64,000 nucleotides of DNA from Gammaproteobacteria bacterium (GCA_965243205.1 CBDEUK010000002.1:768001-832000); one strand, 5' to 3'; positions 15,025 through 37,709 are shown, counted from the stretch's first letter. Notes: generated by a model not told the origin, from the letters alone. Numbers and translations are program-made.

Positions 15025-15056
15025 AAAAAAAGCGGCGTTATTTACGCCGCTTTTTT
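15025..15056. terminator. Bidirectional Rho-independent terminator
   Basis: A7-GCGGCGT-TATTT-ACGCCGC-T6. Confidence 0.85.
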
Positions 15057-15091: not shown

Positions 15092-15847
15092 TTAGCTTTG
15101 CTTACGCGCTCTTGGTAATAATAAACCAATTGCAGAAGCAAATAACCAAACACCAGCAGGAATAGGCACTACTTGCGCGTTGAACGCTTCAACCCCTTCT
15201 TCGAAAGCTAATTCACCTAAACCATTGTTGAAGAATAATCCAAAAGTAATTGAATCAGTAATACCAGCTTGATCAGTGGTGAGAGACATTAGAATTCCAT
15301 ACGCACCTAAAACGCCATTAAATAACTCAAAGTCTAAGTGATTATGAATCAGACCTAAGCCATCAGCCTGTCCAAGAATATTTTCTAAACCGCCAGAAAA
15401 GCTAGCAAGATCAGTAGTCGTACTACCATCAATGACTGATACATCAGCAGGTCCTTGAACATCAGAAATAGAAATACTCGCTGAACCTACTGATTCAAAA
15501 GAATCTCCGTCCCAATATTGCAATGGTCCTAACACATTAAAACCGACGAATGTTCCAGGTGTAGCTGCACCAAATCCATTTTCTGCAAAAAATTCATCGC
15601 TATTAAAGCCAGGATCATCTGTTTCTGTAAATGGAGCTGCTTCAAGAAAATCCGCTTCAAATACAAAACCCTCAGCCGAAGGCTCAATTTCAATAGTGCC
15701 GCCAACAAACCCAAACTCTACATCACTGTGAACTTCAGTCGCATACACATTTGTAACACTCAAAAATCCAGAAATACTGATCGCAATCACTGATGACCAT
15801 TTTCTTGAATTTTCCCCTTTGAAATTCAATAAACTGTTTAAAAACAT
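15092..15847 (-). CDS. Secreted His-motif protein with VPLPA/PEP-CTERM-type tail; putative surface metal-binding protein
   Basis: Signal peptide; HSD, DDPGF, LQYWD, HNHLDF and GAY motifs; ends VPIPAGVWLFASAIGLLLPRARKQS. Confidence 0.75.
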   Translation of the reverse strand: MFLNSLLNFKGENSRKWSSVIAISISGFLSVTNVYATEVHSDVEFGFVGGTIEIEPSAEGFVFEADFLEAAPFTETDDPGFNSDEFFAENGFGAATPGTFVGFNVLGPLQYWDGDSFESVGSASISISDVQGPADVSVIDGSTTTDLASFSGGLENILGQADGLGLIHNHLDFELFNGVLGAYGILMSLTTDQAGITDSITFGLFFNNGLGELAFEEGVEAFNAQVVPIPAGVWLFASAIGLLLPRARKQS

Positions 15848-15943
15848 AATAACTAAAACCTCCCAATAACAATAATTTACATGCTTTTATTAAGATATCT
15901 TCATAGATTTTTTTGAGAAAACTACCCTGAAAATATATAATTT

Positions 15944-15983
15944 ATAACGTTATATCATAACAAATGTTATGTTATAACATTTC
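15944..15983. promoter_or_regulatory. Two overlapping Zur-like boxes in a divergent promoter
   Basis: CAAATGTTATGTTATAACATTTC (15961-15983) and ATAACGTTATATCATAACAAATG (15944-15966) versus gammaproteobacterial Zur consensus GAAATGTTATAWTATAACATTTC. Confidence 0.82.
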
Positions 15984-16037
15984 TAAGTTATATTAAATAC
16001 AATAAGCCCAATATTTTTTAAAAATCACATTTTTTAT

Positions 16038-18530
16038 TTGTTTCGTATGTCTATGGAAAACATAGTAAAAGCTGCTTCTGTTAATGGCGTTAGGTTGTTA
16101 TTGTGCTTTTGCACATTTAACAGCTTATATGCTCAAGATATGCGCGTTCCTAGAAAGCAACTGCCTGCGAAACCATCCATTGAAAATCAATCACTTAATC
16201 TAATTTCAATTCAATCCATGAATATCGAGACCGAATTACTCGCTGATTTTCTAAAAAGAGGTAATTTAGTAGCAGATGCTGGAGACGTTCAAAATAATTT
16301 AGTAGTGGATGACATTATTTTTTCAGATGAATATGACGATTCCGAAATCGATCCATCTTTGTATGAAGAAGAAAATCTCAAACAAGAACCTGTTGAAACG
16401 GTTCAACAAAATAATATAGAAACTGTAGAGACAGAGCCTGTAGAAACTGAAAACATCCTGGAAGTTGATGATGTTCTAGTAACAGGTGAAAAGGAAGGGT
16501 CTCCAGTCGAACCTATATCCACTTTAGAAGGCGATGAATTAACAAAAGAGCTTGGTTCCACATTGGGCGAAACCTTGCAAAACCAGGCAGGTGTACATAA
16601 TGCGACGTTTGGTCCTGGCGTTGGAATGCCTGTTATCAGAGGCATGACAGGTTCTAGAATTCAAATCCTGCAAGGATCAATGGGAAATTACGATGCATCC
16701 TCTGTCAGTCCTGATCATGCTGTCACTATAGAACCATTGCTTGCTAAAGAAATTAAAATTCTTCGAGGCCCAGATACTTTACGTTACAGTGGTAATGCAA
16801 TGGGCGGTGCCATTGATGTGAAAACCGCACGCATTCCAGATTGGTTTCCAGAAAATGGAATTGAAGCTGCGTATGAAACTCGCTATGACACAAATTCAGA
16901 ATTATTTGCAAACGTTTTTAAAATCGATGCTGGTAAAGGACCACTGGTTGTACACCTTGATGGTTACGAACGCAGTTCAAATAATATTGAAATCCCAGGC
17001 AATGCACTCAAAGAAGATGCTGTACTCGAGCAATTTGGCAACCTTGTTGAATTTGATAATACTAATGGAGAAGTACTTAACTCAGACACCGAAAGTACAG
17101 GCTATTCAATTGGCTCATCATTAGTTTTTGAAAAAGGCTTTATTGGAGCAGCGGTTAATATAATCGATAACAATTATGGAATACCGCCCGGTGGTATCCC
17201 ACCTCATAACGATGATCCAACAATAACTGAAGTAACACCCGAGAATCTACGCATTGATATGGAACAAACTCGTTGGGACGTTCATGCTGAAATTTATGAT
17301 GTGATACTAGGCATAGATAGTATCTCTTTTAAAGTAGCCAATATCGATTATGCACATGATGAAGTAGCCAGAGGTGTTCCAGTAACTTCTTTTAATAGTA
17401 AAGCCACTGAAGTACGTATGGAAATGGAATATTCATATAATGAGAATTGGAAAGGTAATGTCGGTTATCAATGGTCCGAACAAGATTGGACAGATCCTGA
17501 TTTTGGCGCAACAGGGACAGAATCCTTTCTTATACCTTCAGATATTATAAAGAACAGTTTCTTTTTTATTCAATCTGCTGATTTTGAAAAATTAAATATC
17601 AAAGCTGGATTTCGTCGTGAATCACAATTGATTCGATCGGATATAGAAAGCGCCGTCGTATTTAATAGTCCACCTGCCATTCCTATCCCACAAAAATATC
17701 ATCATAAATCTAATTCTGGTTCTATTGCGGCTCAATATAATTTTACCGAACAATTAAGTTTCAGAATGTCATTAACGAAATCTGAGCGGACACCCGCTGT
17801 TCAGGAACTGTTATCTCTGGGTCCGCATTTTGCGACTCGAACCTATGAAATATTTAACCTATTTTTAGTTAATGAAACTTCATCTAATATTGATCTCGGA
17901 CTAGCTTTCCAGAATAAACATCTAGATTTTGCTATTAATCTTTTTCATAACGATATAGAAAATTATATTTACTTAGAAAGGTTAAGCGGCGGTTTAGCTT
18001 TTTATGATATTGAGGCAAGACGACCTCAAGGAAACTGTGTTCAATTATCAGGTTGTTTACTCACGTATGGATATCAACAACAAGATGCCAATTTTTTTGG
18101 TTATGAAACAGAACTTAAGCTACGTGCTCCAAAACTTTACAACATTGAAACAGAATTTGGAATTTTTTCAGATTATGTGCGTGGTTTTTTCGATAAAGAT
18201 AATGCAGCAGGTGATGTACCACGTTTACCGCCAAGACGAGCAGGCTTATTTATGAATAACTCATGGCGCTCTTTTGATTTCAACATCCGTTGGACACATG
18301 GGTTTGCACAGCATCGTGCTGGATTAGAAGAAACAAAAACTGATAGTTATGAACGACTCGATCTTGGACTGAGTTTTAATAAGTTATTAAACCTCGGTAA
18401 TGAGATTATGTTTTTTCTTAAAGCGAAAAATTTAACCGATGCTGAAATCAGACATTCAACATCTTTTCTAAGAAATTTCACTCCTGAACCAGGCCGCTCA
18501 TTAGAACTCGGCTTGCGTTGGAGTTTTTAG
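16038..18530 (+). CDS. ZnuD-like TonB-dependent outer-membrane receptor
   Basis: Plug motifs FGPGVGMPVIRG, DASSVSPDHAV and ILRGPDTLRY; EL...GPH.AT motif; C-terminal PGRSLELGLRWSF. Exact start uncertain (16038, 16047 or 16053). Confidence 0.88.
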   Translation: MFRMSMENIVKAASVNGVRLLLCFCTFNSLYAQDMRVPRKQLPAKPSIENQSLNLISIQSMNIETELLADFLKRGNLVADAGDVQNNLVVDDIIFSDEYDDSEIDPSLYEEENLKQEPVETVQQNNIETVETEPVETENILEVDDVLVTGEKEGSPVEPISTLEGDELTKELGSTLGETLQNQAGVHNATFGPGVGMPVIRGMTGSRIQILQGSMGNYDASSVSPDHAVTIEPLLAKEIKILRGPDTLRYSGNAMGGAIDVKTARIPDWFPENGIEAAYETRYDTNSELFANVFKIDAGKGPLVVHLDGYERSSNNIEIPGNALKEDAVLEQFGNLVEFDNTNGEVLNSDTESTGYSIGSSLVFEKGFIGAAVNIIDNNYGIPPGGIPPHNDDPTITEVTPENLRIDMEQTRWDVHAEIYDVILGIDSISFKVANIDYAHDEVARGVPVTSFNSKATEVRMEMEYSYNENWKGNVGYQWSEQDWTDPDFGATGTESFLIPSDIIKNSFFFIQSADFEKLNIKAGFRRESQLIRSDIESAVVFNSPPAIPIPQKYHHKSNSGSIAAQYNFTEQLSFRMSLTKSERTPAVQELLSLGPHFATRTYEIFNLFLVNETSSNIDLGLAFQNKHLDFAINLFHNDIENYIYLERLSGGLAFYDIEARRPQGNCVQLSGCLLTYGYQQQDANFFGYETELKLRAPKLYNIETEFGIFSDYVRGFFDKDNAAGDVPRLPPRRAGLFMNNSWRSFDFNIRWTHGFAQHRAGLEETKTDSYERLDLGLSFNKLLNLGNEIMFFLKAKNLTDAEIRHSTSFLRNFTPEPGRSLELGLRWSF

Positions 18531-18573
18531 CAATTTTTTTATATTGATATTTATATTTGTAGGGGAAATACCA

Positions 18574-19425
18574 ATGTTACGTTTAATGGTTTTTTTATCT
18601 GGCTGCTTGTTCTCAATGACTACAATGGCCGTGCATCTGGATGTCGCAGTATCAAACGATGGCGGAAAAATAAAAACGGATTTTTGTCTAGCAGGTGGAC
18701 CTGCATGTGATCAGCTTCCAGTTCTAGACTTTCTAGGTATTCCACCCTTAACTGCACCTGTCGACTTAGAAACAGGCAAAAATATTTTTATATCAGATTT
18801 TGATGATTTTGAAGGTGGTCCAAATGGTGTTGATGATCCCGGTTTTATTTCTGGTGCTAACCAACTGCCTGCTACTACTAAACTCAGTTATACAGCCGTA
18901 GGTCAATTACAATATTGGGATCCTGCAACGGGTGAATGGGGTAATACAGTTCCAGGAACAACTCGCATAGAATTATTTGGTGGCACTGAAAGTTTGATCA
19001 TAACTGACCCTGTTATTTGCGGCGGTCTTCCATTTTGTATTATTGAACAAGCAACCAGCACTTTATTTTCTGAATCTGGTATCAGTGGTGCACCTGTATT
19101 AGCAGTTGGAGATACTGATGCAACAGGCCAACTTCATGTACACCTCGATTGGTTTATTGAAGATAGTAACGATAATCCTGGCGGTCCAAATGGTGCCTAT
19201 ATGGTTGAGATGCATATGACGGCTCCTGGACTTACTGACAGCGATCCATTTTTTGTAATGTTTGCTAAAGGATTAACTACAGAACAATTTGGTGAAGCAC
19301 TTGCCGATAGAATCGTAGCTCCAGAAACACAAGTTCCAATGCCTACCGTTTATATTTTTATTCTGATGCTTTTATTACCAATGATTGCTACAAAATATTT
19401 AAAACTAGGTAATGCTAAATATTAG
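18574..19425 (+). CDS. Secreted His-motif protein with VPxP-CTERM-type tail; paralogue of 15092-15847
   Basis: Signal peptide; HLD, DDPGF, LQYWD, HVHLDW and GAY motifs; ends VPMP + hydrophobic helix + basic residues; ATG 18574 follows AGGGGA. Confidence 0.72.
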   Translation: MLRLMVFLSGCLFSMTTMAVHLDVAVSNDGGKIKTDFCLAGGPACDQLPVLDFLGIPPLTAPVDLETGKNIFISDFDDFEGGPNGVDDPGFISGANQLPATTKLSYTAVGQLQYWDPATGEWGNTVPGTTRIELFGGTESLIITDPVICGGLPFCIIEQATSTLFSESGISGAPVLAVGDTDATGQLHVHLDWFIEDSNDNPGGPNGAYMVEMHMTAPGLTDSDPFFVMFAKGLTTEQFGEALADRIVAPETQVPMPTVYIFILMLLLPMIATKYLKLGNAKY

Positions 19426-19449: not shown

Positions 19450-19491
19450 TTGATAACTTTAGGTCGGGTTTTGCCCGACCATATTTATCAA
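19450..19491. repeat. REP-like palindrome or bidirectional terminator
   Basis: TAGGTCGGG-TTTTG-CCCGACC nested inside TTGATAA...TTATCAA, between convergent genes. Confidence 0.45.
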
Positions 19492-19527: not shown

Positions 19528-20316
19528 TTACGCTGCTTGTTCTTCTGACTTTTCTTCAGATGAATCGGAAGCTTCTTCATCACCCAAGATTTCATTCATA
19601 AGTTCATCTGCAATATCATCTGACTCTGCTTCTTCATTAGTAGAAGCATCATCTTCTGATATATCCACAACGTCGCCTTCTTCTTCAACTTCGCTTTCAT
19701 CAACGTTACTAACTTCAGCAGATTCTGCCTCTTCTGATGTTTCAGACTCTGCTGAATTATCAGATGAGTCACTTTCATCTGCATTTGTCATCATGTTGGT
19801 ATATTCACTCATAAGAACATCCATTTCTTCAGATGTCGATTTCAATTTAGTCTCTAAATTTTCTTTTTCTTCTGATAATGACTCGTTTTCTTTTTCTAAT
19901 CTTTCTTGAGCTTCTGTATCAACTAAACCTTCACCACTTTCTCTACCGAGCACCATTGCAGAATTAATTAAACCTGAGACCGAATCTCCTAGTGGGGTAA
20001 TATCATCAAGGCTTTGTGTACGTATCGCTTTAATCATGTCTTTAAAGAGTTGATTTTGCCCTTCGACTAAACCTTGTAAACCTTTTTTTATCGCTTCTGG
20101 ATCAGTTAATCCAGGTTGCAATATTATCTCAGCCATTTTCTTTTTGTTATCTTCGCCTTTTTCTTTTATGTCTTTAATTAAGGCATTAAGCGCTTTTACA
20201 GCTTTATTGTTCTTTCTTTTCAGAGCAAATAACAAACAAACATTCACAAACAGAAGAAAACCAATAATTTCTAAAGAAAGAATTAATAATGCAGGATTAT
20301 TCATATATTCAATCAT
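19528..20316 (-). CDS. Hypothetical membrane-anchored coiled-coil protein with a very acidic tail
   Basis: N-terminal TM helix, heptad region, D/E/S-rich C-terminus; ATGA overlap with the upstream vWA gene. Confidence 0.75.
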   Translation of the reverse strand: MIEYMNNPALLILSLEIIGFLLFVNVCLLFALKRKNNKAVKALNALIKDIKEKGEDNKKKMAEIILQPGLTDPEAIKKGLQGLVEGQNQLFKDMIKAIRTQSLDDITPLGDSVSGLINSAMVLGRESGEGLVDTEAQERLEKENESLSEEKENLETKLKSTSEEMDVLMSEYTNMMTNADESDSSDNSAESETSEEAESAEVSNVDESEVEEEGDVVDISEDDASTNEEAESDDIADELMNEILGDEEASDSSEEKSEEQAA

Positions 20317-22193
20317 AATATTTCCTCAGGATATACGTAGGCTGCTTCACGTACTTTTTTAAACCATCTCCAAGCTAAAAATAAAATAAGATATACAACA
20401 TTACCTATTGCAACAGGGATAACTATTTGCATCATGTTAGGAGACGCTGACTCTTCAACAATAACTTCTTGTTGTATAGGAGCTTCAGTTTCAGCCATTT
20501 CTATGAACTCACCTAATTTTATTTCAGGATGATTAATAACAACTTCTCTACCAGAAGGACTTATTGTTTTTAAACGAAGGTTAACAATACTTTGTCCAGC
20601 TTGATCGGGGGTATATTGGAATAACCAACCGCTTTCTATGTCTATTAGATCGATTGTTTGCTGTATATTTTTTTGATTAGTTATTTCAACTGTAAGGTTA
20701 GATTGTTCCAAATAAATTAATTCTGGAATTATCTTGATTAGAAATTCCCATGTAGGAAATATTTCTTCTTGGTTTTCAGTTTCATTCTCTTTTACAGAGC
20801 CTGATATAGCTGAAAGCATTTTTTTTGCGTCTTTTTTAGCTCCTTTTTCCTCTACAATTTCTTGCCATGAAACCTCGATAGGCGAAGCATGCGCAGTTAT
20901 AGGAAAACGTTTTTCACGGATAAAAGTTTCGCTTTCTATTTTTAGAACTAATTCTTGTTCACCAACTTGCCATTCAGTTCCATGTTGATAGGTAATCAAA
21001 CCTTCAGCGCTTGGTGAATCTAAAGGTTTAATATGTTGTTCGCCTGAAGCATATGTTGTTACCAGATTACTTTTAATTAATTTTAGAAAATCAGATCGTG
21101 TAATTTTTTCTCCTTTTTCCTCCATCCATACTTCTAATGAAGCCTCTTCACCATTTAACACCACACTTGGCAAATCAGATGTTTGTAATTTTAAATCCGT
21201 TACAATCATCGCACGGTTATCTGGATCTTCATCTGCAATTAATTGCCAAACACCCGCTTCAGGTTGTTTGATTGAAATTAAGTCATAACCTGTATCATTT
21301 TTCCATTTAAGATATTCAAAAGATGATGATTTATCATAAACAACACCTTGCGGTGAGATCAGTTGCGTCGGTTTCGAATCCGATTTACGAAAAACTAATA
21401 AGGTTAATTCTGAAATACTATTATCGACATTAACTTTATTACCTTCTAATGGAACAGTATCTTGAGGTGCAGATTGCTCAAACAAACTCATGAACGTTCT
21501 TTGTAATAAATCTGCATTATCAACTTGTTGATAATGTCCTTCTGTAGCAACAGCCAATTCTTTTAATAAACGATGATCTGCATTTTTAGATAAAGCAATA
21601 GTATGCACATTAACTTTCTGTTCTTGTAAAGAAGTAATGACACTATCTAGTATACGATCCCGTGATGCCATACTAACTAATGAGTTTTTATCTATATCAA
21701 CAATACCATCCGTTAAAAGAATAATAGAACGTTGACGATTGGTATCTTGAGTCCACTTCGTTTCTGCTGAAACTAATGCAGATTCAATATTGGTATAAAG
21801 ATCTCGTGATTGGTATCGATTACTATGCTGCTCAGCCATACGTTTCCATTCTTCAGAAACAGAATCAAACGGTACTAACTCTCGCACTGAAGTGCCAAAT
21901 AAATAAATACCAACCTTAGCATTTTCAGGAGCCATTCCTGATAACAGTCTGATGGCAGGTGAGCGCATATTAAGAGGATCGTTTTGTTTCATACTGCCCG
22001 AAACATCAACAAAAACTATAACTTCTGAATTAATCTTATCTTTAGGCTTGTCTGCTTTGGAGTTATTACTTTCAACTGGTAAACCCAATAAATCGTTGCC
22101 AATACCCATCATCTCTGGCTGCGCATGAGCACCCAAAGTGAATATCGCAAAGATAATCATTGCAACTAATTGATGTAATGAAAATTTATTCAT
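20313..22193 (-). CDS. Secreted/membrane-anchored vWA-domain protein (TIGR03503-like)
   Basis: MIDAS motif DVSGSM...T...LLTDG, signal peptide, C-terminal TM helix. Confidence 0.82.
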   Translation of the reverse strand: MNKFSLHQLVAMIIFAIFTLGAHAQPEMMGIGNDLLGLPVESNNSKADKPKDKINSEVIVFVDVSGSMKQNDPLNMRSPAIRLLSGMAPENAKVGIYLFGTSVRELVPFDSVSEEWKRMAEQHSNRYQSRDLYTNIESALVSAETKWTQDTNRQRSIILLTDGIVDIDKNSLVSMASRDRILDSVITSLQEQKVNVHTIALSKNADHRLLKELAVATEGHYQQVDNADLLQRTFMSLFEQSAPQDTVPLEGNKVNVDNSISELTLLVFRKSDSKPTQLISPQGVVYDKSSSFEYLKWKNDTGYDLISIKQPEAGVWQLIADEDPDNRAMIVTDLKLQTSDLPSVVLNGEEASLEVWMEEKGEKITRSDFLKLIKSNLVTTYASGEQHIKPLDSPSAEGLITYQHGTEWQVGEQELVLKIESETFIREKRFPITAHASPIEVSWQEIVEEKGAKKDAKKMLSAISGSVKENETENQEEIFPTWEFLIKIIPELIYLEQSNLTVEITNQKNIQQTIDLIDIESGWLFQYTPDQAGQSIVNLRLKTISPSGREVVINHPEIKLGEFIEMAETEAPIQQEVIVEESASPNMMQIVIPVAIGNVVYLILFLAWRWFKKVREAAYVYPEEIL

Positions 22194-28740: not shown

Positions 28741-31700
28741 TTATTGCCAAGCAGCTGCAATAGCCGTATTAAGTTCATTTTGTTGTTGAACAGTTAATCC
28801 ATCAATCGATGCTGGCTCCGTTGTACTAATTGATGCCATAACAGAAACTAATTGATCTAATTGATTTAGTAACAATGTTTTACCATCTGATAGTTCAAAA
28901 GTCTCAACTTGATAGTTTGCATTTAACATCTGGTTACTTACTGTTAACTTATCTTCCGAACCAATCACACTGATCTCGAGGTTGTTTCCAATTTTTCTAA
29001 ACCATAAATCATTTGCTGAAATGCCCGATTGAAATGTAACTTTGTCTTGATTCCCAGCCGCTGCATCATAATCATAAATCGTGTCTTGACCAGAGCCTAA
29101 GCCAAAGTGATAAATATCATCTCCATAGCCTCCGCTCATATAGTCATTGCCAGCACCTCCGTCTAAAATGTCATTACCATTGTCTCCATACAACGAGTCA
29201 TTTCCATCTTCGCCAAACAAGGTGTCGTTATCATTGCGACCATAAAGATAATCATTACCATCGCCACCACGCAACACATCATTACCATCCTGGCCATACA
29301 CCCAGTCGTTACCACCACCTGCGTTGATAACATCCGATGTCGCATAACCCGTGATCGTTTCACCATTGCTCGTTCCAACCAACAAGGTCTCCTTGATCCA
29401 ATCCAACACCCACGTCGTGCCATCCGCAAAACGAAGTTCTTCAATACTGTAACGCTCATCACCATCATTGAGTAAATAGTTACTCAACGTTAATTTGTCC
29501 GAGGTACCAACCACACTCAAAACTAGATTATTTCCGGTACGACTCAACTGAATATCGGTCGGCGCAATACCAGCCCCAAACTCAACCACATCCAAGTTAC
29601 CAGCCGTTGGGTCATAATCCGATATCGTGTCTTGACCAGAGCCTAAGCCAAAGTGATAAATATCATCTCCATAGCCTCCGCCCATATAATCATTGCCAGC
29701 ACCTCCGTCTAAAATGTCATTACCATTGTCTCCATACAACGAGTCATTTCCATCTTCGCCAAACAAGGTGTCGTTATCATTGCGACCATAAAGATAATCA
29801 TTACCATCGCCACCACGCAACACATCATTACCATCCTGGCCATACACCCAGTCGTTACCACCACCTGCGTTGATAACATCCGATGTCGCATAGCCCGTGA
29901 TCGTTTCACCATTGCTCGTTCCAACCAACAAGGTCTCCTTGATCCAATCCAACACCCACGTCGTGCCATCCGCAAAGCGAAGCTCTTCAATACTGTAACG
30001 CTCATCACCATCATTCAATAAATAGTTACTCAACGTTAATTTGTCCGAGGTACCAACCACACTCAAAACTAGATTATTTCCGGTACGACTCAACTGAATA
30101 TCGGTCGGCGCAATACCAGCCCCAAACTCAACCACATCCAAGTTACCAACCGTTGGGTCATAATCCGATATCGTGTCTTGACCAGAGCCTAAGCCAAAGT
30201 GATAAACATCATCTCCATAGCCTCCGCCCATATAGTCATTGCCAGCTCCTCCGTCTAAAATGTCATTACCATTGTCTCCATACAAAGAGTCATTTCCATC
30301 TTCGCCAAACAAGGTGTCGTTATCATTGCGACCATAAAGATAGTCATTACCATCGCCACCACGCAACACATCATTACCATCCTGGCCATACACCCAGTCG
30401 TTACCACCACCTGCGTTGATAACATCCGATGTCGCATAGCCCGTGATCGTTTCACCATTGCTCGTTCCAACCAACAAGGTCTCCTTGATCCAATCCAATA
30501 CCCACGTCGTGCCATCCGCAAAGCGAAGCTCTTCAATACTGTAACGCTCATCACCATCATTCAATAAATAGTTACTCAACGTTAATTTGTCCGAGGTACC
30601 AACCACACTCAAAACTAGATTATTTCCGGTACGACTCAACTGAATATCGGTCGGCGCAATACCAGCCCCAAACTCAACCACATCCAAGTTACCAGCCGTT
30701 GGGTCATAATCCGATATCGTGTCTTGACCAGAGCCTAGGCCAAAGTGATAAACATCATCTCCATAGCCTCCGCCCATATAGTCATTGCCAGCACCTCCGT
30801 CTAAAATGTCATTACCATTGTCTCCATACAACGAGTCATTTCCATCTTCGCCAAACAAGGTGTCGTTGTCATTGCGACCATAAAGATAGTCATTGCCATC
30901 GCCACCACGCAACACATCATTACCATCCTGGCCATACACCCAGTCGTTACCACCACCTGCGTTGATAACATCATCACCATTTGTACCAGTAAAGGTTTCT
31001 GAAGTGACAGTACCATTAGTATCAGAAGAACTAGAGCCACTGTCGTCATTACTATTTGAACTACCTGCAGCGATCAGAGTATCAATTTCATTACGCCCCC
31101 ATATTTCAGATGGTGTAGATTCAAAATGAAATTCTTCTAGTTGGTATTTTGGGTCAGTTCCATTTGACCAAAAATAATATTCCAAAGTCAGTTGTGTATT
31201 GACATCCAATGTTAAAATTAAATTATATCCAGACTGCTGTGCTGAAATTTCTGAAGGTAAAATATCGCCTTTAAAAATGACTTTATCTAATTTATTAGTA
31301 CCGTTATCGTAAAGGTAAATAGAATCTTTCCCATAGTTACGACCGAAATAATAGATGTCGTTTCCATCACCTCCATATAACCGATCGTTCCCTGCTCCTC
31401 CATCAAGAATATCATTACCATTCTCACCAACGAGGTAATCATTGCCATCATCTCCATTTAACACATCATTACCTTCACCGCCATAGACTGTATCGTTACC
31501 TGAACCAGCATCTAATGTGTCATTGCCATCAAAGCCGTAAACAACATCATCACCAGCACCAGCATTTAAAGTATCATCACTGGCATATCCACCTAACCAA
31601 TCATTTCCATCAGTTGCTGAATTCAATGCAGCATCTAGTAGATAATTAGTATCCCAAATCGTATCAGGTGAAGATTCAAATTGGATTTGGTTTATGTATG

Positions 31701-34700
31701 AGCCATAGTAATTACCAGGATCATTTAGGCCATCGCGAGTGAAGAAGTTTTTGACGATGAGGCGATCTTCGCCAGTAGGACTGGAAACAACCAATGTTAA
31801 GTCATTTTGATTCGCACCATTACCATTCTCGCGTTTAATCGTAACATCAGAAGGTAAAATATCACCAATGAACTTAATAATATCCGTTTCTTCAGTGGCG
31901 CCATAAATACGGGTATTCTCTATTCGATCAGTGCCGTATCCTCGACCAAATAGATAAGTGTCATTTCCTCCCTCGCCACGAAGCGTATCATCGCCAGTAC
32001 CTCCATCGAGAATATCATTGCCATTACCACCACTTAACCAATCATCTCCAGCTTCTCCATAGATAGTATCATTTCCTTCACCACCCATAAGGCCGCCGCT
32101 ATGTCCATTAGTACGTCGGTATAATCCATCATCACCATCACCGCCATAAATCACATCATCTCCTGCATCACCAAAGATTCGATCAATACCAGAGCCACCA
32201 TAAATGGTGTCATTACCATCCCGACTATAAATATCATCATCGCCTGCATTACCAGAAATGCTATCATCAGAATCATAACCAGTAATACGATCATTATTGC
32301 TGGTACCAATCAATAACTGACTTTTAACCCACTCTGTTGTCCAAACAGTATTATCAGAAAAACGAATTTCTTCGATACGACGTTCAGGCGTATTACCATC
32401 ATTATTGAAATACCATTCAAGAGTTAATTTATCGGAAGTATTTTTGATTAGCAGTTCTAAGTGGATTCCATTACGAATTAATTGAACATCATCAGGCGAA
32501 ACATCACTTAAAAACTCTACTGCATCTACCTTATTGGTTAGGTCAGTACCGTAACCATTGTAGTTCATGACTCTGTCATGACCATAACCTCTACCAAAAC
32601 GATAAACATCATTTCCTTCGCCGCCAACAAGAGTATCGTTACCGGTTCCACCATCTAATATGTCATTACCTTCATCACCAACCAGATAATCATCACCAGC
32701 ATCACCAAACAGTTGGTCATTACCTTTATGTCCATAGAGGGAATCCTTACCGTCATTTCCGTGAACTATATCATTGCCACTTCGTGCATAGATATAGTCA
32801 TCACCAGCATTACCAGTAATCACATCATCCGTTAGATAACCCGTAATAGTATTATTGTTATCATCTCCAGTAAGTACAAATTGTTTAATATAATCGACAT
32901 CCCATATTTGACCATTGGCAAAACGAATTTCATCTACCGCTGAAGCCTCGTTAATATCTTCAGTTGTAAAATAAGCACTAACAATCAATTTATCTGTTGT
33001 ACCAATAATTTCTAACTCTAATGAATTGCCAACTCGAGAAATTGCAATGTCTTCTGGAGAAATGTCGTTATTAAATACAATGGCATCTTGTTTTATTGGT
33101 GAATAATCATAACTTGAAATGGTATCTATTCCATAACCTCGGCCAAATTTATAAATATCGTTTCCATAGCCACCGTCAAGCCTATCATTGCCTGCACCAC
33201 CGTCTAAAATATCATCCCCAAATCGTATGGAACCATTATCACCATGAAGATAGTCATCACCAGCGCCGCCAAACAGGATGTCATCGCCAGCATCTCCGTA
33301 AAGAGAATCATCTCCATCATTTCCATAGAGGATATCGTTTAGCTCACCGCCTTGAAGTCGATCTGTTTCAGCTTGCCCTAATATAATTTCATTTTCTAAT
33401 CCTAAGCCATTACGAAACTGAGGATCATTTATGTCAGTTCGGTTGAATACATTCATTTGAACTAGTAAAGATTCAAGAGCACTATTTCCTTCTGCTTCAT
33501 CAGCCCAACTTTTCAACTGCTCAAGGCCATTCCATCCATATTGGTGCAAAGTATTGCCAGCATAACGATTTAGCTCAATCAGATCGATATAAGCTAACAT
33601 TGCACTTGACTGTTTAAGATCAGACAGTAAGGTATTGAGTGTTGTGAAATCAAAATCGATTGTCCCTGTATCACTAATACCAAAATCAATTGCTTCCATG
33701 TATGGTTTTAGTCGAGTTTGAAATAGTAGGCCTGCATAAATAGACTCACGTAATTGAGCATAAGACCTTTCTATATTTACTTTCTGTGCTTCTGCATATA
33801 CTAAATCCGTTTCTTTCATATAAATAACATTACTGTCCACACGACCACTACTTGAACCAGTACCAACGCCTCTTCTAAATGTAGTTCTTCCTGTACTAGC
33901 CGACGTTACAAATCGTTCTGGCTCTCCATCTTGATTGTCATCTTCAATCTCAAAACTAAAATCAAAGAAGTTTTGATTATTAAACACTTCTAACATTTGA
34001 ATTTTTGCTAGTACTTCAACATCTCGTCTGTCTGGATAAGCGCCTACTCTAAGTGTTGAACCGTCATGAGTAACATCTCCAATTGTTAAATAACCTGTAG
34101 AGCCGTTACTTCCAGAACCACTGCTAGTTGGGGTAGTAAATTCAGCATCATCTTCTAGAATTGGATTAGAGATTACAAACTCGACATCCCATGTTTTTGC
34201 AGCTACATTAACAGTGCCTGTGGAGATTGCAGGTGTTTCTATAGTGGCATCATCGAGTCGATCTTTTAAAAGATAATAGCCAGACGTTAAAGCCCATTCA
34301 TGGATGATTTGATCTAATAAAGCTTCTTGGCCAGCTTTAGTTGTGATTTGAGAATATTGATTTAAAAGGCTAGTCAATTCAGAACTTAATGTTGCTGCTT
34401 GTCTTAAATCACGAACCGCACCTGAACCTTGCATATTCGGAAGGGCTTGATGAGATTCAGGTATAGCTAAAACATCTTGGAACTCACGATAAAAATTATT
34501 CGTTGCTAGATTCAAACTTGCAGCAGCACCCGTTTGTCCAGTACTACCATTGCTATAAGTAAATGTACCTTCAGCAATCGCAACATTTCCATGACCAACA
34601 TTAGTGTTTGCCTGGACACCGTCAGTACTTATACTCTCGACACCTAGTTGGTTTAGAGTAAATAATTCATTTGATTGACTGATACCGTCAGAATTTAAGT

Positions 34701-35682
34701 CTCTCCAAATTCTTAACTTACTAAAATCAACATCTCTAGAATCAACTAACCCATCAGAATTGCTATCCAAATCACTTAAAGCATCAAAACCATCTTTTGC
34801 AGTAGAACCATCAGATTTAATCGTATTGTCACCAAATAACTCAAGACCATTATCGATCATACCATTATTGTTTCTATCCATGACGACCATTCCATCATCT
34901 GGATGAATCCAACCTATAGCAGATTTAGTTCCATCTGCATCATGATCAAACAATACTGTTCCATCAGCTGGAATCGTCTCAATACCGTCTCCATCTAAGT
35001 CAAGAGTAAGAGGATCACTAGGTGGAATCCATTTCAGTGCCTCTTGAAAAAACTCGCCTACAGGTTTGAATATTTCATCAAAATATGGCGCAAAGTAACT
35101 ATCATTTAATAACCAATCAACAGCTAGACCTACACCAATAAAAACACCAAATGTCGCAATAAGCCCCCATGATGCTGGAATTAATGCTGCTGCGATTAAA
35201 CCAGTTAATGTTGAAAATGCTAATTTTCCAATTTCACTTGGGTCATCACCAAATAGCGCATCAAGAAATTGATATAAATCATATGCTGCTCCACCTGCCT
35301 CTTTAATAATTTTTCCTGCAGCACCATAAGCAGCACTCTCTGTTGCAAGTTGAAGTTGTCCATTTACAGCATCTATACGGTTTCTTAAGTATGTACGTAT
35401 CTGACCCAAATCACCTGCTTTATCAGTAAGGGTTCTTGCTTCAACACTATCAGATCCAAAATGTGTTTGTGCTTTATCAGCTATATCTAAACCTAGATTT
35501 TGAATATACTCTAAGTTTTGTTCTAATTTATTCAGGGTATGTAATGCTGTCTCAGAATCGGAGAGCCCATTTTCTAACGCAAAATCAAATGCATCTCCTA
35601 TAGTTTGATTAATTGTATTTTTTACAGCCGAAGCAAAAGTTTTAACATCATTTTGAAATGAATTTTGGTTTTGTCCTGACAT
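28741..35682 (-). CDS. Large RTX calcium-binding protein with FrpC/ApxIVA-type self-processing module
   Basis: Many GGxGxDxL nonapeptides; D223-P224-LTLDLDGDGIET...GWIHPDDG...D.NNNG.IDNG.ELFGD; C-terminal T1SS-type signal ending ...QLDQLVSVMAS...AAWQ. Confidence 0.92.
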   Translation of the reverse strand: MSGQNQNSFQNDVKTFASAVKNTINQTIGDAFDFALENGLSDSETALHTLNKLEQNLEYIQNLGLDIADKAQTHFGSDSVEARTLTDKAGDLGQIRTYLRNRIDAVNGQLQLATESAAYGAAGKIIKEAGGAAYDLYQFLDALFGDDPSEIGKLAFSTLTGLIAAALIPASWGLIATFGVFIGVGLAVDWLLNDSYFAPYFDEIFKPVGEFFQEALKWIPPSDPLTLDLDGDGIETIPADGTVLFDHDADGTKSAIGWIHPDDGMVVMDRNNNGMIDNGLELFGDNTIKSDGSTAKDGFDALSDLDSNSDGLVDSRDVDFSKLRIWRDLNSDGISQSNELFTLNQLGVESISTDGVQANTNVGHGNVAIAEGTFTYSNGSTGQTGAAASLNLATNNFYREFQDVLAIPESHQALPNMQGSGAVRDLRQAATLSSELTSLLNQYSQITTKAGQEALLDQIIHEWALTSGYYLLKDRLDDATIETPAISTGTVNVAAKTWDVEFVISNPILEDDAEFTTPTSSGSGSNGSTGYLTIGDVTHDGSTLRVGAYPDRRDVEVLAKIQMLEVFNNQNFFDFSFEIEDDNQDGEPERFVTSASTGRTTFRRGVGTGSSSGRVDSNVIYMKETDLVYAEAQKVNIERSYAQLRESIYAGLLFQTRLKPYMEAIDFGISDTGTIDFDFTTLNTLLSDLKQSSAMLAYIDLIELNRYAGNTLHQYGWNGLEQLKSWADEAEGNSALESLLVQMNVFNRTDINDPQFRNGLGLENEIILGQAETDRLQGGELNDILYGNDGDDSLYGDAGDDILFGGAGDDYLHGDNGSIRFGDDILDGGAGNDRLDGGYGNDIYKFGRGYGIDTISSYDYSPIKQDAIVFNNDISPEDIAISRVGNSLELEIIGTTDKLIVSAYFTTEDINEASAVDEIRFANGQIWDVDYIKQFVLTGDDNNNTITGYLTDDVITGNAGDDYIYARSGNDIVHGNDGKDSLYGHKGNDQLFGDAGDDYLVGDEGNDILDGGTGNDTLVGGEGNDVYRFGRGYGHDRVMNYNGYGTDLTNKVDAVEFLSDVSPDDVQLIRNGIHLELLIKNTSDKLTLEWYFNNDGNTPERRIEEIRFSDNTVWTTEWVKSQLLIGTSNNDRITGYDSDDSISGNAGDDDIYSRDGNDTIYGGSGIDRIFGDAGDDVIYGGDGDDGLYRRTNGHSGGLMGGEGNDTIYGEAGDDWLSGGNGNDILDGGTGDDTLRGEGGNDTYLFGRGYGTDRIENTRIYGATEETDIIKFIGDILPSDVTIKRENGNGANQNDLTLVVSSPTGEDRLIVKNFFTRDGLNDPGNYYGSYINQIQFESSPDTIWDTNYLLDAALNSATDGNDWLGGYASDDTLNAGAGDDVVYGFDGNDTLDAGSGNDTVYGGEGNDVLNGDDGNDYLVGENGNDILDGGAGNDRLYGGDGNDIYYFGRNYGKDSIYLYDNGTNKLDKVIFKGDILPSEISAQQSGYNLILTLDVNTQLTLEYYFWSNGTDPKYQLEEFHFESTPSEIWGRNEIDTLIAAGSSNSNDDSGSSSSDTNGTVTSETFTGTNGDDVINAGGGNDWVYGQDGNDVLRGGDGNDYLYGRNDNDTLFGEDGNDSLYGDNGNDILDGGAGNDYMGGGYGDDVYHFGLGSGQDTISDYDPTAGNLDVVEFGAGIAPTDIQLSRTGNNLVLSVVGTSDKLTLSNYLLNDGDERYSIEELRFADGTTWVLDWIKETLLVGTSNGETITGYATSDVINAGGGNDWVYGQDGNDVLRGGDGNDYLYGRNDNDTLFGEDGNDSLYGDNGNDILDGGAGNDYMGGGYGDDVYHFGLGSGQDTISDYDPTVGNLDVVEFGAGIAPTDIQLSRTGNNLVLSVVGTSDKLTLSNYLLNDGDERYSIEELRFADGTTWVLDWIKETLLVGTSNGETITGYATSDVINAGGGNDWVYGQDGNDVLRGGDGNDYLYGRNDNDTLFGEDGNDSLYGDNGNDILDGGAGNDYMGGGYGDDIYHFGLGSGQDTISDYDPTAGNLDVVEFGAGIAPTDIQLSRTGNNLVLSVVGTSDKLTLSNYLLNDGDERYSIEELRFADGTTWVLDWIKETLLVGTSNGETITGYATSDVINAGGGNDWVYGQDGNDVLRGGDGNDYLYGRNDNDTLFGEDGNDSLYGDNGNDILDGGAGNDYMSGGYGDDIYHFGLGSGQDTIYDYDAAAGNQDKVTFQSGISANDLWFRKIGNNLEISVIGSEDKLTVSNQMLNANYQVETFELSDGKTLLLNQLDQLVSVMASISTTEPASIDGLTVQQQNELNTAIAAAWQ
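29077..30972 (-). repeat. Intragenic tandem repeat, 546-bp (182-aa) unit, about 3.5 near-identical copies
   Basis: Identical shadow ORFs recur at 29163/29709/30255/30801 and 29607/30153/30699 (period 546). Repeat ends are approximate. Confidence 0.92.
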
Positions 35683-35699
35683 TTAAATCCTCCTACTAT

Positions 35700-36224
35700 T
35701 TAGTTAACTAATTTCTTAAAAAAATGGGATAAATAAAAAATACTTATTATGAACATAGTCCATGAACCCCAAGATAAAATTGCCATCCCAATTAAAGTCT
35801 CTGAAAACAACCTAATAAATATTCCTGGTTTTACATTTTGAATGTTCCCTGAATGCTCAAAGCCACCAACACAAGTAATAACCCCTAAAAAGAATAAAAC
35901 AAATAAAAGGATTACTACTTTAGTTGTATATGCATCGTAATTTATTATTTTTATATTTCTGAAAAACAAGAAAAGTATTAATACGCTACTCAAAGGTAAA
36001 AATAGCCATACAGCTCTGGCCTCATCATAATAATCTGATAAAAGTGGTGATCGATTCACCGCAGGAATTAATAAAGATAATTGATCACAAACACTACAAT
36101 TCGCCATATCTATTTCCATATAATTTATTAAGCAAGCAATAGTTAAAGTAATTAATGCCCAACTACCTAATACTATGTTAGAAAATCGTTCAGATTTCTT
36201 AGATATATATCTCTCATCATTCAC
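35700..36224 (-). CDS. Small 4-TM membrane protein; candidate immunity or accessory protein of the RTX
   Basis: 174 aa, four hydrophobic segments, very AT-rich, between hlyD and the RTX gene (17 bp gap to the RTX). Confidence 0.7.
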   Translation of the reverse strand: MNDERYISKKSERFSNIVLGSWALITLTIACLINYMEIDMANCSVCDQLSLLIPAVNRSPLLSDYYDEARAVWLFLPLSSVLILFLFFRNIKIINYDAYTTKVVILLFVLFFLGVITCVGGFEHSGNIQNVKPGIFIRLFSETLIGMAILSWGSWTMFIISIFYLSHFFKKLVN

Positions 36225-36266
36225 TTATATGTTACCCAGTATATTTTTATTTCTAGCATTATAATT

Positions 36267-37709
36267 TTATCGCTCACGAATACTCTCTTGCTTATATCTA
36301 AGAAGCGGACTCAAAAAATATTCAATCACTCTTCGCTTACCTGTTTTAATTTCAACATTCACACTCATACCAGGTGTTAAATTAACTAATTTATTATTGA
36401 CCTGCATTTTAGTTTTATGAATTAAAATTTTAGCCATATACACCAAGCCTAAATTCTCATCAGATATTGCATCATTAGATAAATTAATTACCTCAGCATC
36501 AATGGTTCCGTATTTTGTAAAATTGAAGGTATCTATTTTCACCTCAGCAACTTGTCCTTCCTCGATGAAACCAATGTCTTTATTAAGCACTAAAGCTTCT
36601 ACTTCCAATACAGATTGTTCAGGAACAATGAGCATCAACTCTTGAGCTGGCGTAACGACTCCACCTATAGTGTGAACTGCTAATTGTTGAACTGTTCCAT
36701 TGATTGGAGAATAAATAACTTGTTGATGATTTCTTTTATTGGCTTTTATCAACTCTTGTTCAATTGAAGAAATTTGAATAGAAGTTTCATTCAATTCTTG
36801 CAGATTCGTTTTTTGTACTTCTGCTTTTAATGTTTTTAATTGTGAATTTATTTCATTGATAGAAGCTATGATTTCTCTGTGCTGCGCTTTTAATGCTTGA
36901 AGATCTTGCTCTTGCTCTATTCTTTCCTGTTCTAAAGATAAAAATTGATCTCTAGCAACTAAATCTTTTTTCATAAGTTTCTTTAAAGAATCAACGCGTT
37001 CAGTAATCAACGGCAATGTTCGCTCTAATTTAATAACTGTCGCTTTGATACTTTGTTTCTCTGACTGCCGTTTTTCTAACTCATTCAATAATGTCTCTTT
37101 TCTATGATCGTATTCATTGATTTGTTCAACTAATAACTGATGTTGATTATTCACTTCATTTTTAGAAAAGGCTTGCTCGTTATTTTGGTTATGAGAATCA
37201 TAAACATCATTAAACTCAGACAAAGAATTCTGTAACCATTCATTACTTCTTGAATCGCCTGTATCAAGTATTTTTTGGAATTCTGTATTACGTGTTTTTT
37301 GTAAGCCTAACGAATAAAGTTGTTGTTCAAATCGTGTCGCATCTGCTTCTGTGGCTGTAGTATCTAAGGTAATTAATACATCGCCTTCTTGAACATACTG
37401 CCCCTCTTTAACATGGATAGTATTGATTTTGCCTATTTCTAATGGTTGAATTGTTTTTACACGATCACTTGGAATAATTTTTCCTGGCGCAACAGCGACC
37501 ACATCCAGTTTTCCGAAATATCCCCAAACCAAAGTTAATACAAATAACAACATAATCGTCCAGATAATGGCTCTTCCAATAGGCGATGGAGGCGTCTCCT
37601 GAATTTCAAGTACTGCTGGCATAAAAGCATAGGTGCTTCGTCTGATTTTCTCAGGGGTATCAAACCAATCAATCGGTTTGTTTAAAATTTTTGTCAACCA
37701 TTTGATCAT
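36267..37709 (-). CDS. hlyD: T1SS membrane fusion protein (HlyD family)
   Basis: F.PAVLEIQETP, SPINGTVQQL, NKDIGF and PGMSVNVEIKTGKRRVIEYFLSP motifs. Confidence 0.93.
   Translation of the reverse strand: MIKWLTKILNKPIDWFDTPEKIRRSTYAFMPAVLEIQETPPSPIGRAIIWTIMLLFVLTLVWGYFGKLDVVAVAPGKIIPSDRVKTIQPLEIGKINTIHVKEGQYVQEGDVLITLDTTATEADATRFEQQLYSLGLQKTRNTEFQKILDTGDSRSNEWLQNSLSEFNDVYDSHNQNNEQAFSKNEVNNQHQLLVEQINEYDHRKETLLNELEKRQSEKQSIKATVIKLERTLPLITERVDSLKKLMKKDLVARDQFLSLEQERIEQEQDLQALKAQHREIIASINEINSQLKTLKAEVQKTNLQELNETSIQISSIEQELIKANKRNHQQVIYSPINGTVQQLAVHTIGGVVTPAQELMLIVPEQSVLEVEALVLNKDIGFIEEGQVAEVKIDTFNFTKYGTIDAEVINLSNDAISDENLGLVYMAKILIHKTKMQVNNKLVNLTPGMSVNVEIKTGKRRVIEYFLSPLLRYKQESIRER

Follow-up and report, generated by a model that had tools for sequence, protein, structure and literature searches.

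We analysed a 64,000-nucleotide stretch of DNA from a Gammaproteobacteria bacterium (GCA_965243205.1, CBDEUK010000002.1:768001-832000), referred to below as the window, and focused on a locus at positions 15,092 to 19,425. This locus encodes a TonB-dependent receptor that resembles the zinc receptor ZnuD, together with two paralogous proteins, here named A and B, that seem to be exported. On balance we think it probable that the locus is a Zur-repressed module in which zinc is captured at an N-terminal His/Asp site of A and B and is then handed to the receptor. A role of the locus in zinc uptake is well supported by its predicted regulation and by its gene context. Beyond this, we infer that A and B would be located at the surface, that zinc would be their ligand, which residues would bind it and that it would be passed on to the receptor.

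Locus layout and the predicted Zur regulon

Reading of the open reading frames (ORFs) in the window confirmed a three-gene unit consisting of A, the receptor and B. The features of this unit and of its control region are as follows (lengths in amino acids, aa).

15092-15847, minus strand: gene A, 251 aa, with a signal peptide that is likely cleaved after VYA36
16038-18530, plus strand: ZnuD-like receptor gene, 830 aa
18544-19425, plus strand: ORF of gene B; in the database B begins with the ATG at 18574 and has 283 aa
15963-15981, no strand assigned: perfect Zur-box palindrome AATGTTATGTTATAACATT with 0 mismatches, in the divergent spacer
15946-15964, no strand assigned: weak second Zur-like box with 3 mismatches
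15913-15941, plus strand: best sigma-70-like promoter match, TTGAGA-17-TATAAT, 11/12 hexamer positions, a consensus match only
15026-15056, minus strand: terminator-like hairpin 3' of A, between A and the convergent clpA, with a 13-pair stem, 6 GC pairs and a T-run
19462-19480, plus strand: terminator-like hairpin closing the receptor-B operon, with an 8-pair stem and 6 GC pairs

Gene A is divergent from the receptor gene over a 190-bp spacer and the start of B lies 43 bp past the receptor stop. These coordinates agree with the original prediction, made from the sequence of the window, that one paralog is divergent from the receptor and the other lies downstream of it on the same strand. No plus-strand terminator-like hairpin was found in the gap between the receptor and B. 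Because hairpins follow A and B and none separates the receptor from B, the locus appears to be a divergon with A on one side and a receptor-B operon on the other. The best promoter match points to the receptor and ends 5 bp ahead of the Zur boxes.

The spacer had been described as holding two overlapping Zur-consensus boxes. One of these is the perfect palindrome at 15963-15981. The other, with its 3 mismatches, does not rise above chance when taken alone, as shuffled sequences average 1.37 such matches per window. A 17-mer core of the palindrome with 0-1 mismatch occurs at only four loci in the whole 2.79-Mb genome, and core matches with 2 mismatches are no commoner genome-wide than those of a reversed-pattern control. 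The other three loci lie upstream of a ZigA gene (706 bits, above the cut-off) that is followed by ZrgA, upstream of a Zur-like gene that is followed by a COG0523 GTPase, and upstream of a gene for a 147-aa protein that matches no family. A 2-mismatch copy of the core also precedes the zur-znuA-znuC-znuB operon. Because the same palindrome stands before canonical zinc genes, it can be taken as the Zur box of the source organism, and, the palindrome being a Zur box, the A-receptor-B locus is part of the predicted Zur regulon. These data support the earlier suggestion of Zur control, since the palindrome is common to the promoters of zigA-zrgA and of zur-like/COG0523 and recurs, with 2 mismatches, before zur-znuACB.

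Two places in the same genome deserve a separate mention. A short second Zur-like gene (C2:127731-128125; 78 bits) stands before a COG0523 GTPase gene and has a double Zur box of its own. The strong Zur box before the gene for the 147-aa protein (C2:134311-134332, locus L059) belongs to a gene that is divergent from that for formylmethanofuran dehydrogenase subunit A.

The receptor contains Plug and TonB barrel domains in a Pfam scan. Among NCBIfam families the ZnuD model NF038289 is the best match (346.7 bits) and leads the runner-up (100 bits) by about 246 bits, in agreement with its first description as a ZnuD-like receptor.

The A/B family and its genomic company

A and B align over 226 columns with 29% identity (BLASTP, E=1e-10) and are thus paralogs, as had been proposed, and each of them starts with a Sec-type signal peptide. 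The motifs listed in the original prediction are all present in both proteins and in identical order (residue positions of B are those of the 283-aa form), and the ending of VPxP, transmembrane (TM) helix and basic residues can be read in both translations.

HxD: HSD at A40-42, HLD at B21-23
DDPGF: A77-81, B87-91
G.LQYWD: A107-113, B110-116
HxHLD(F/W): HNHLDF at A168-173, HVHLDW at B188-193
GAY: A181-183, B207-209
C-terminal VPxP: VPIP at A227-230, VPMP at B254-257, in both cases ahead of a hydrophobic helix and basic residues

The tail of A reads VPIP, TM helix, RARK, and the mature N-terminus of B reads V-H-L-D. AlphaFold2 models A as a beta-sandwich (pLDDT 88.1) and gives a model of similar pLDDT for B (88.5). 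Neither protein has a Pfam or NCBIfam match at E<=0.1. A Foldseek search of the A model against the PDB returned nothing at E<=0.001, and the B model likewise lacks a close counterpart among solved folds; a fold family is neither claimed nor excluded, and the best rows were pilin or adhesin beta-sandwiches at background level. The nearest ESM Atlas clusters are unnamed 'hypothetical protein' or PEP-CTERM entries, most commonly from Planctomycetota, and gave no lead. A resemblance to 'choice-of-anchor M' domains had been suggested from the motif layout. This suggestion is not supported, as no such NCBIfam match was found in A or B (E<=0.1), in 35 family members (E<=1) or in 27 further members (E<=0.001). 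The only choice-of-anchor matches among further members were to types U and X, in the C-terminal parts of two long proteins.

Word-based searches returned 24 further relatives of A and nine of B, and A- and B-type relatives apparently share five contigs, which is consistent with a conserved pair. A profile built from 35 sequences matched 1,739 cluster representatives at E<=0.001 among 1.84 billion, of which 1,149 were at <=1e-10 and 239 at <=1e-30. This is a large family without a Pfam or NCBIfam model, and naming it would improve annotation. Conservation was counted over 182 domain instances in 178 proteins and is given below in A numbering.

H40: 138/182
D42: 177/182
P79 and G80: 178/182 and 179/182
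H168: 178/182
H170: 162/182, with Asp in 18 more
D172: 118/182, with Glu in 16 more
Y183: 178/182
S199: 179/182

From N- to C-terminus, then, the family signature is X-H-x-D, PGF, HxHxD and GAY, and the domain always follows directly after the signal peptide. In B-type members and in members fused to an autotransporter, the mature protein is predicted to begin with a hydrophobic residue, after which comes His-x-Asp, and B-type proteins conserve four Cys. Several A-type homologs have DHDHDH-type tracts at the mature N-terminus; His-rich N-terminal tracts are likewise found in ZnuA, ZinT and ZepA (Sarasa-Buisan et al., PLoS Biol 2024, PMC10957091). Because H168, H170 and D172 alternate on a predicted strand, their side chains would face one side.

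To examine the genes around the family, we scanned one genome per species with a B-type alignment and obtained 25 loci. This sample is biased towards B-type genes, and a sample of Pseudomonadota genomes and a metagenome scan with distant A-type members were added to offset the bias. Twelve of the 25 loci are gammaproteobacterial or unclassified and include Methylotuvimicrobium and Methylobacter; the other 13 are betaproteobacterial (Nitrosomonas, Nitrosospira, Nitrosovibrio, Methyloversatilis and Burkholderiales). A ZnuD-like receptor gene with 33-58% identity adjoins the B-type gene in all 25 loci, one of these receptor genes being cut by a contig end, and a second paralog is present in 18/25. 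The gamma-type Zur core with <=2 mismatches was found in 10/25 loci, all of them among the 12 gammaproteobacterial or unclassified ones, compared with 0-1 in 20 shuffles, and it lies mostly between divergent genes.

Known zinc genes are frequent neighbours. By tblastn within the flanks of the 25 loci, we found ZepA in nine, ZigA-type COG0523 in eight, ZrgA in three and Zur in two. ZepA (All3515; NF040463) is the Zur-repressed PEP-CTERM zinc exoprotein of Anabaena sp. PCC 7120 (PMC10957091), and true zepA genes with 240-295 bits are present in six of ten family-holding genomes tested. An NCBIfam scan gave the order ZepA, B-type, receptor, A-type and Fur-family regulator in Methyloversatilis (L027). 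In Nitrosospira (L034) the order is ZrgA with ABC (ATP-binding cassette) genes, B-type, receptor, A-type, amoC, ZepA and ZigA. The full-family profile, when run over 400 other Pseudomonadota genomes, gave one clear match (G185) and one marginal match. In G185 a single-strand run comprises zur, two paralogs, a ZnuD-like receptor and a third paralog. The association of homologues with metal-uptake loci, to which the original prediction had pointed as a check, is therefore seen in the proteobacterial branch, with the receptor in 25/25 loci and in G185 and with ZepA, ZigA, ZrgA or Zur near many of them.

Some loci have features that stand apart from this pattern. In the betaproteobacterial loci the region upstream of the A-like gene contains conserved inverted repeats that do not resemble the gamma-type Zur box. 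They occur in L026, L029, L031 and L034 (Nitrosospira/Nitrosovibrio; for example TTGACA..TATTACATTATTGATAACGAGTTCTCA.. in Nitrosospira) and in L027, L028 and L035 (Methyloversatilis; for example GATAATAGTAACGTATTATC in L035), and may be Fur-family sites of another type. A gene for a fused protein of the major facilitator superfamily (MFS) and spermidine synthase stands beside the receptor in Methylotuvimicrobium buryatense (L016:4016-6586) and Nitrosomonas halophila (L022:3070-4623); its product could synthesise or transport a small metal-binding molecule. In the closest relative among metagenome-assembled genomes (L011:9938-14007), the genes after the trio encode a RegA/RegB-type two-component system and a TonB receptor of the copper type.

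Proposed mechanism, cell location and alternatives

When zinc is scarce, Zur would leave the palindrome in the divergent promoter region, and its release would allow the ZnuD-like importer to be made together with the exported A and B. A and B would leave the cytoplasm by Sec export and would probably be processed or displayed by way of their exosortase-type tails of VPxP, TM helix and basic residues. They would probably bind Zn(II) through the X-H-x-D of the mature N-terminus and the HxHxD of the strand, with the DDPGF loop nearby, and could then present the zinc to the adjacent receptor. Such an arrangement would amount to a two-part receptor, like a hemophore or TbpB with its TonB-dependent transporter, and parallels what has been proposed for ZepA. 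A complex prediction with receptor residues 140-830, B residues 20-252 and Zn gave a median of 0.31 against a mark of 0.32; it was run with no controls and counts neither for nor against binding.

For the location of A and B, the genome and the relatives are informative. The genome has three matches above cut-off to the exosortase family PF09721. It also has seven VPLPA-CTERM matches above cut-off and 24 at E<=1, compared with 0 above cut-off in 14 control genomes. PEP_CTERM is matched in 14/35 family members and VPLPA-CTERM in 13/35 at E<=1. In a Pfam scan of 30 further members, the N-terminal domain precedes an autotransporter beta-domain with PATR repeats in five, and the other downstream modules are dockerin, PKD, Kelch and PEP-CTERM. 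The domain itself is covered by no Pfam model in these 30 members and by no NCBIfam model in 27 (E<=0.001). Together, the interchangeable anchors, the sorting tails and the exosortases favour an extracytoplasmic location for the A/B-type domain, most likely at the surface or secreted. The exosortases, the VPLPA-CTERM repertoire and the relatives that are autotransporter passengers or are linked to dockerin or PKD modules make export and surface display, as first suggested, plausible.

A further kind of C-terminal part occurs in B-type proteins of Methylobacter and Nitrosomonas (L019-L025), where the PEP-CTERM tail is replaced by a Cys-containing module of roughly 75 aa with a consensus of about LFxWAE..FPH..GYYARCY..C.G..G..F.TGG.FG. 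In L021, L022 and L025 the ORF upstream of the receptor has this module at its end as well and looks like a third, degenerate paralog.

Several observations weigh against zinc capture and hand-off by A and B. The gamma-type Zur box was not found in the 13 betaproteobacterial loci. With 346.7 bits the receptor is below the equivalog cut-off of NF038289, which is 950 bits, and it is therefore ZnuD-like and not a ZnuD equivalog. The N-terminal His (H40) is missing in 44/182 domain instances and is replaced by Ser in the Nitrosospira B-types. In addition, X-His at the amino terminus is a well-known motif for Cu(II), and many of the hosts oxidise methane or ammonia in a copper-dependent way. The metagenome scan with distant A-type members yielded 13 loci, six of them with tandem paralog pairs, and no ZnuD-like receptor or tested zinc gene was found in their flanks by tblastn. 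In 5/6 annotated metagenome loci the gene just upstream is a DUF1559/prepilin-motif gene of a kind typical of Planctomycetota, and the distant members are themselves Planctomycetota-like. Because these loci do not have the receptor, pairing with it is a feature of the proteobacterial branch and not of the whole family. Lastly, the tail of A scored 11.4 bits against the VPLPA-CTERM model TIGR03370 (cut-off 25.35) and is not among the 24 VPLPA-CTERM matches of the genome at E<=1, and the tail of B had no match to sorting-signal models.

The metagenome loci L070, L071, L073, L074 and L076 share one gene order, namely the DUF1559/prepilin-motif gene, paralog 1, and paralog 2 with a PEP-CTERM tail. 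In L073 a Fur-family gene lies two genes upstream, and in L072 MerC adjoins the family member.

Because the tails of the window proteins match the PEP-CTERM and VPLPA-CTERM models poorly or not at all, tethering to a membrane in the periplasm has to be considered. A and B would then be zinc chaperones held at the inner membrane that carry zinc from the receptor to ZnuA, like ZinT, ZrgA and AztD. Chaperones of this kind are often encoded in zinc-starvation clusters, and ZrgA is found in the same loci as the family. However, the same domain serves as an autotransporter passenger or is linked to dockerin or PKD modules, which places it outside the cell, and PEP-CTERM and VPLPA-CTERM tails are found in the proportions of homologs given above. 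In addition, ZepA, which has a similar tail, was found in the exoproteome (PMC10957091). We consider the periplasmic explanation unlikely.

The fixed pairing with a TonB-dependent receptor would also be seen if A and B were co-receptors that, comparably to TbpB or SusD, recognise a zinc-loaded ligand such as a zincophore or a foreign zinc protein. The MFS/spermidine-synthase gene beside the L016 and L022 receptors might be the source of a small molecule, and ZnuD has been named a zinc-piracy receptor. By contrast, conserved His and Asp residues at a free N-terminus, together with His-rich tracts, typify direct metal binding, and no biosynthetic genes for such a ligand were found in the window. 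This makes a role as ligand co-receptors quite unlikely. We regard it as distinctly improbable that A and B capture a different metal, chiefly copper (or Ni/Co), and work with a receptor that merely resembles ZnuD. It is very improbable that A and B are non-metal surface proteins (zinc-independent replacements, adhesins or shields) that are merely co-regulated. In favour of this idea, zinc-free paralogs are common in Zur regulons (PMC10957091), pilin or adhesin beta-sandwiches head the fold search and distant members stand beside DUF1559 pseudopilin-like genes. Against it, those fold matches do not exceed background, His and Asp are near-invariant, His-rich tracts occur at the N-terminus and adjacency to the receptor is strict over two proteobacterial classes.

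Other genes of the window lie further from these questions. Convergent with B, the minus-strand region 19528-22193 encodes a 626-aa VWA-domain protein with a TIGR03503 match below the cut-off, and also a very acidic 262-aa protein rich in Ser, Glu and Asp. At 28741-39859, also on the minus strand, is a gene for a 2,313-aa RTX-repeat protein with 16 HemolysinCabind stretches and six HCBP_related stretches. Its downstream neighbours encode a HlyD-family protein and an ABC exporter with a C39 peptidase, which together make this a type I secretion locus. Three 101-aa ORFs, 546 bp apart, within the RTX-repeat gene reflect its internal repeats.

Comparison with ZnuD, ZepA and two-part receptors

How zinc passes the outer membrane of Gram-negative bacteria is still poorly understood, although ZnuD-type receptors are known. 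The family described here has gone unannotated and is wired to one receptor gene in both gamma- and betaproteobacteria, often together with zepA, zigA, zrgA and zur. A wider and more tentative proposal is that A and B represent a large unrecognised metal-capture family with a site formed by X-H-x-D at a free N-terminus and by HxHxD, and with swappable anchors. In Proteobacteria this family and ZnuD-type transporters might together make up an obligatory two-part zinc receptor, a protein 'zincophore' system that is distinct from ZepA and often works beside it. If this wider proposal is true, the genetic connection that is missing between a zinc exoprotein and its outer-membrane receptor would be supplied. 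The locus also provides a defined pair for studying how zinc might be handed from protein to receptor, and Methylotuvimicrobium buryatense 5G (L016), which is genetically tractable, is one possible host for such work. The environmental genomes affected include those of methane and ammonia oxidisers, where trace-metal supply matters.

The receptor of the window resembles ZnuD of Neisseria (NF038289) in having Plug and barrel domains, in having ZnuD as its best model and in having a Zur box upstream. It differs in its score below the cut-off and in an acidic N-terminal extension of roughly 115 residues. This extension, a long low-complexity segment before the plug (residues ~35-150; 16038-16500), is not found in the relatives, and the receptor has 830 aa compared with about 700-740 aa in most of them. 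To our knowledge, ZnuD has not been described with dedicated partner proteins.

A and B resemble PEP-CTERM and VPLPA-CTERM substrates (TIGR02595, TIGR03370) in the architecture of the tail and in the presence of exosortases and substrates in the same genome. However, the window tails are degenerate (VPIP and VPMP), and some relatives swap the tail for a Cys module, Kelch repeats, an autotransporter or dockerin.

TbpB and HasA are binding proteins that are paired with TonB-dependent transporters. The locus resembles two-part systems of this type (TbpB-TbpA, HasA-HasR and azurin-OprC) in that a protein proposed to bind the substrate is encoded beside the transporter that it would feed. It differs in having no sequence or fold kinship with them, in a ligand that would be the bare metal, and in an exosortase-type tail in place of a lipid anchor or free secretion. 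Azurin-OprC is cited as a two-part example in the ZepA study (PMC10957091).

The closest known counterpart is ZepA. ZepA binds zinc at about 1.5 Zn per monomer and contributes to zinc uptake in Anabaena; its delivery of zinc to a Zur-regulated TonB-dependent transporter is put forward as a proposal, without proof, and the receptor of ZepA is the open step that the authors themselves name (PMC10957091). The concept of a Zur-repressed PEP-CTERM zinc exoprotein is thus not new, as ZepA/All3515 already is such a protein. Our literature search found no paper that combines ZnuD and PEP-CTERM. ZepA and A/B share Zur control (in silico for A/B), a Sec signal peptide, an exosortase-type tail, a beta-sandwich of about 250-280 aa, a rare and patchy occurrence and His-rich mature N-termini. 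The neighbourhoods of both families contain COG0523, TonB-dependent transporter and Fur-family genes, and extracellular zinc capture for an outer-membrane receptor has been proposed for both (PMC10957091).

A and B as members of the ZepA family can be rejected. The model NF040463 (cut-off 75 bits) misses both proteins at E<=0.1 and reaches only 1/35 family members, at E=0.096, and it had no match at E<=1 in the source genome. The true zepA genes that it detects elsewhere, as given above, serve as a positive control for the model. The ZepA zinc site, H-X2-9-H-[FY]-H, is not in A, which has no His between 41 and 167, or in B, which has none between 22 and 187. Six ZepA sequences have HGNHFH, whereas the A/B-type family conserves X-H-x-D, PGF and HxHxD. 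When the tails were included, hhalign aligned the two families with a probability of 96% (E=3.6e-9), over 71 C-terminal columns only, which comprise the last strands and the tail. When signal peptides and tails were trimmed, the probability was 21.8% (E=1e-3, 41 columns). The C-terminal half may share a very distant ancestry with that of ZepA. A further difference is that in Proteobacteria the A/B-type family always adjoins one specific receptor and has two to three paralogs. Thus, what is known is the ZepA kind of system, and what is new is a different, much larger and unannotated family that has a fixed receptor partner.

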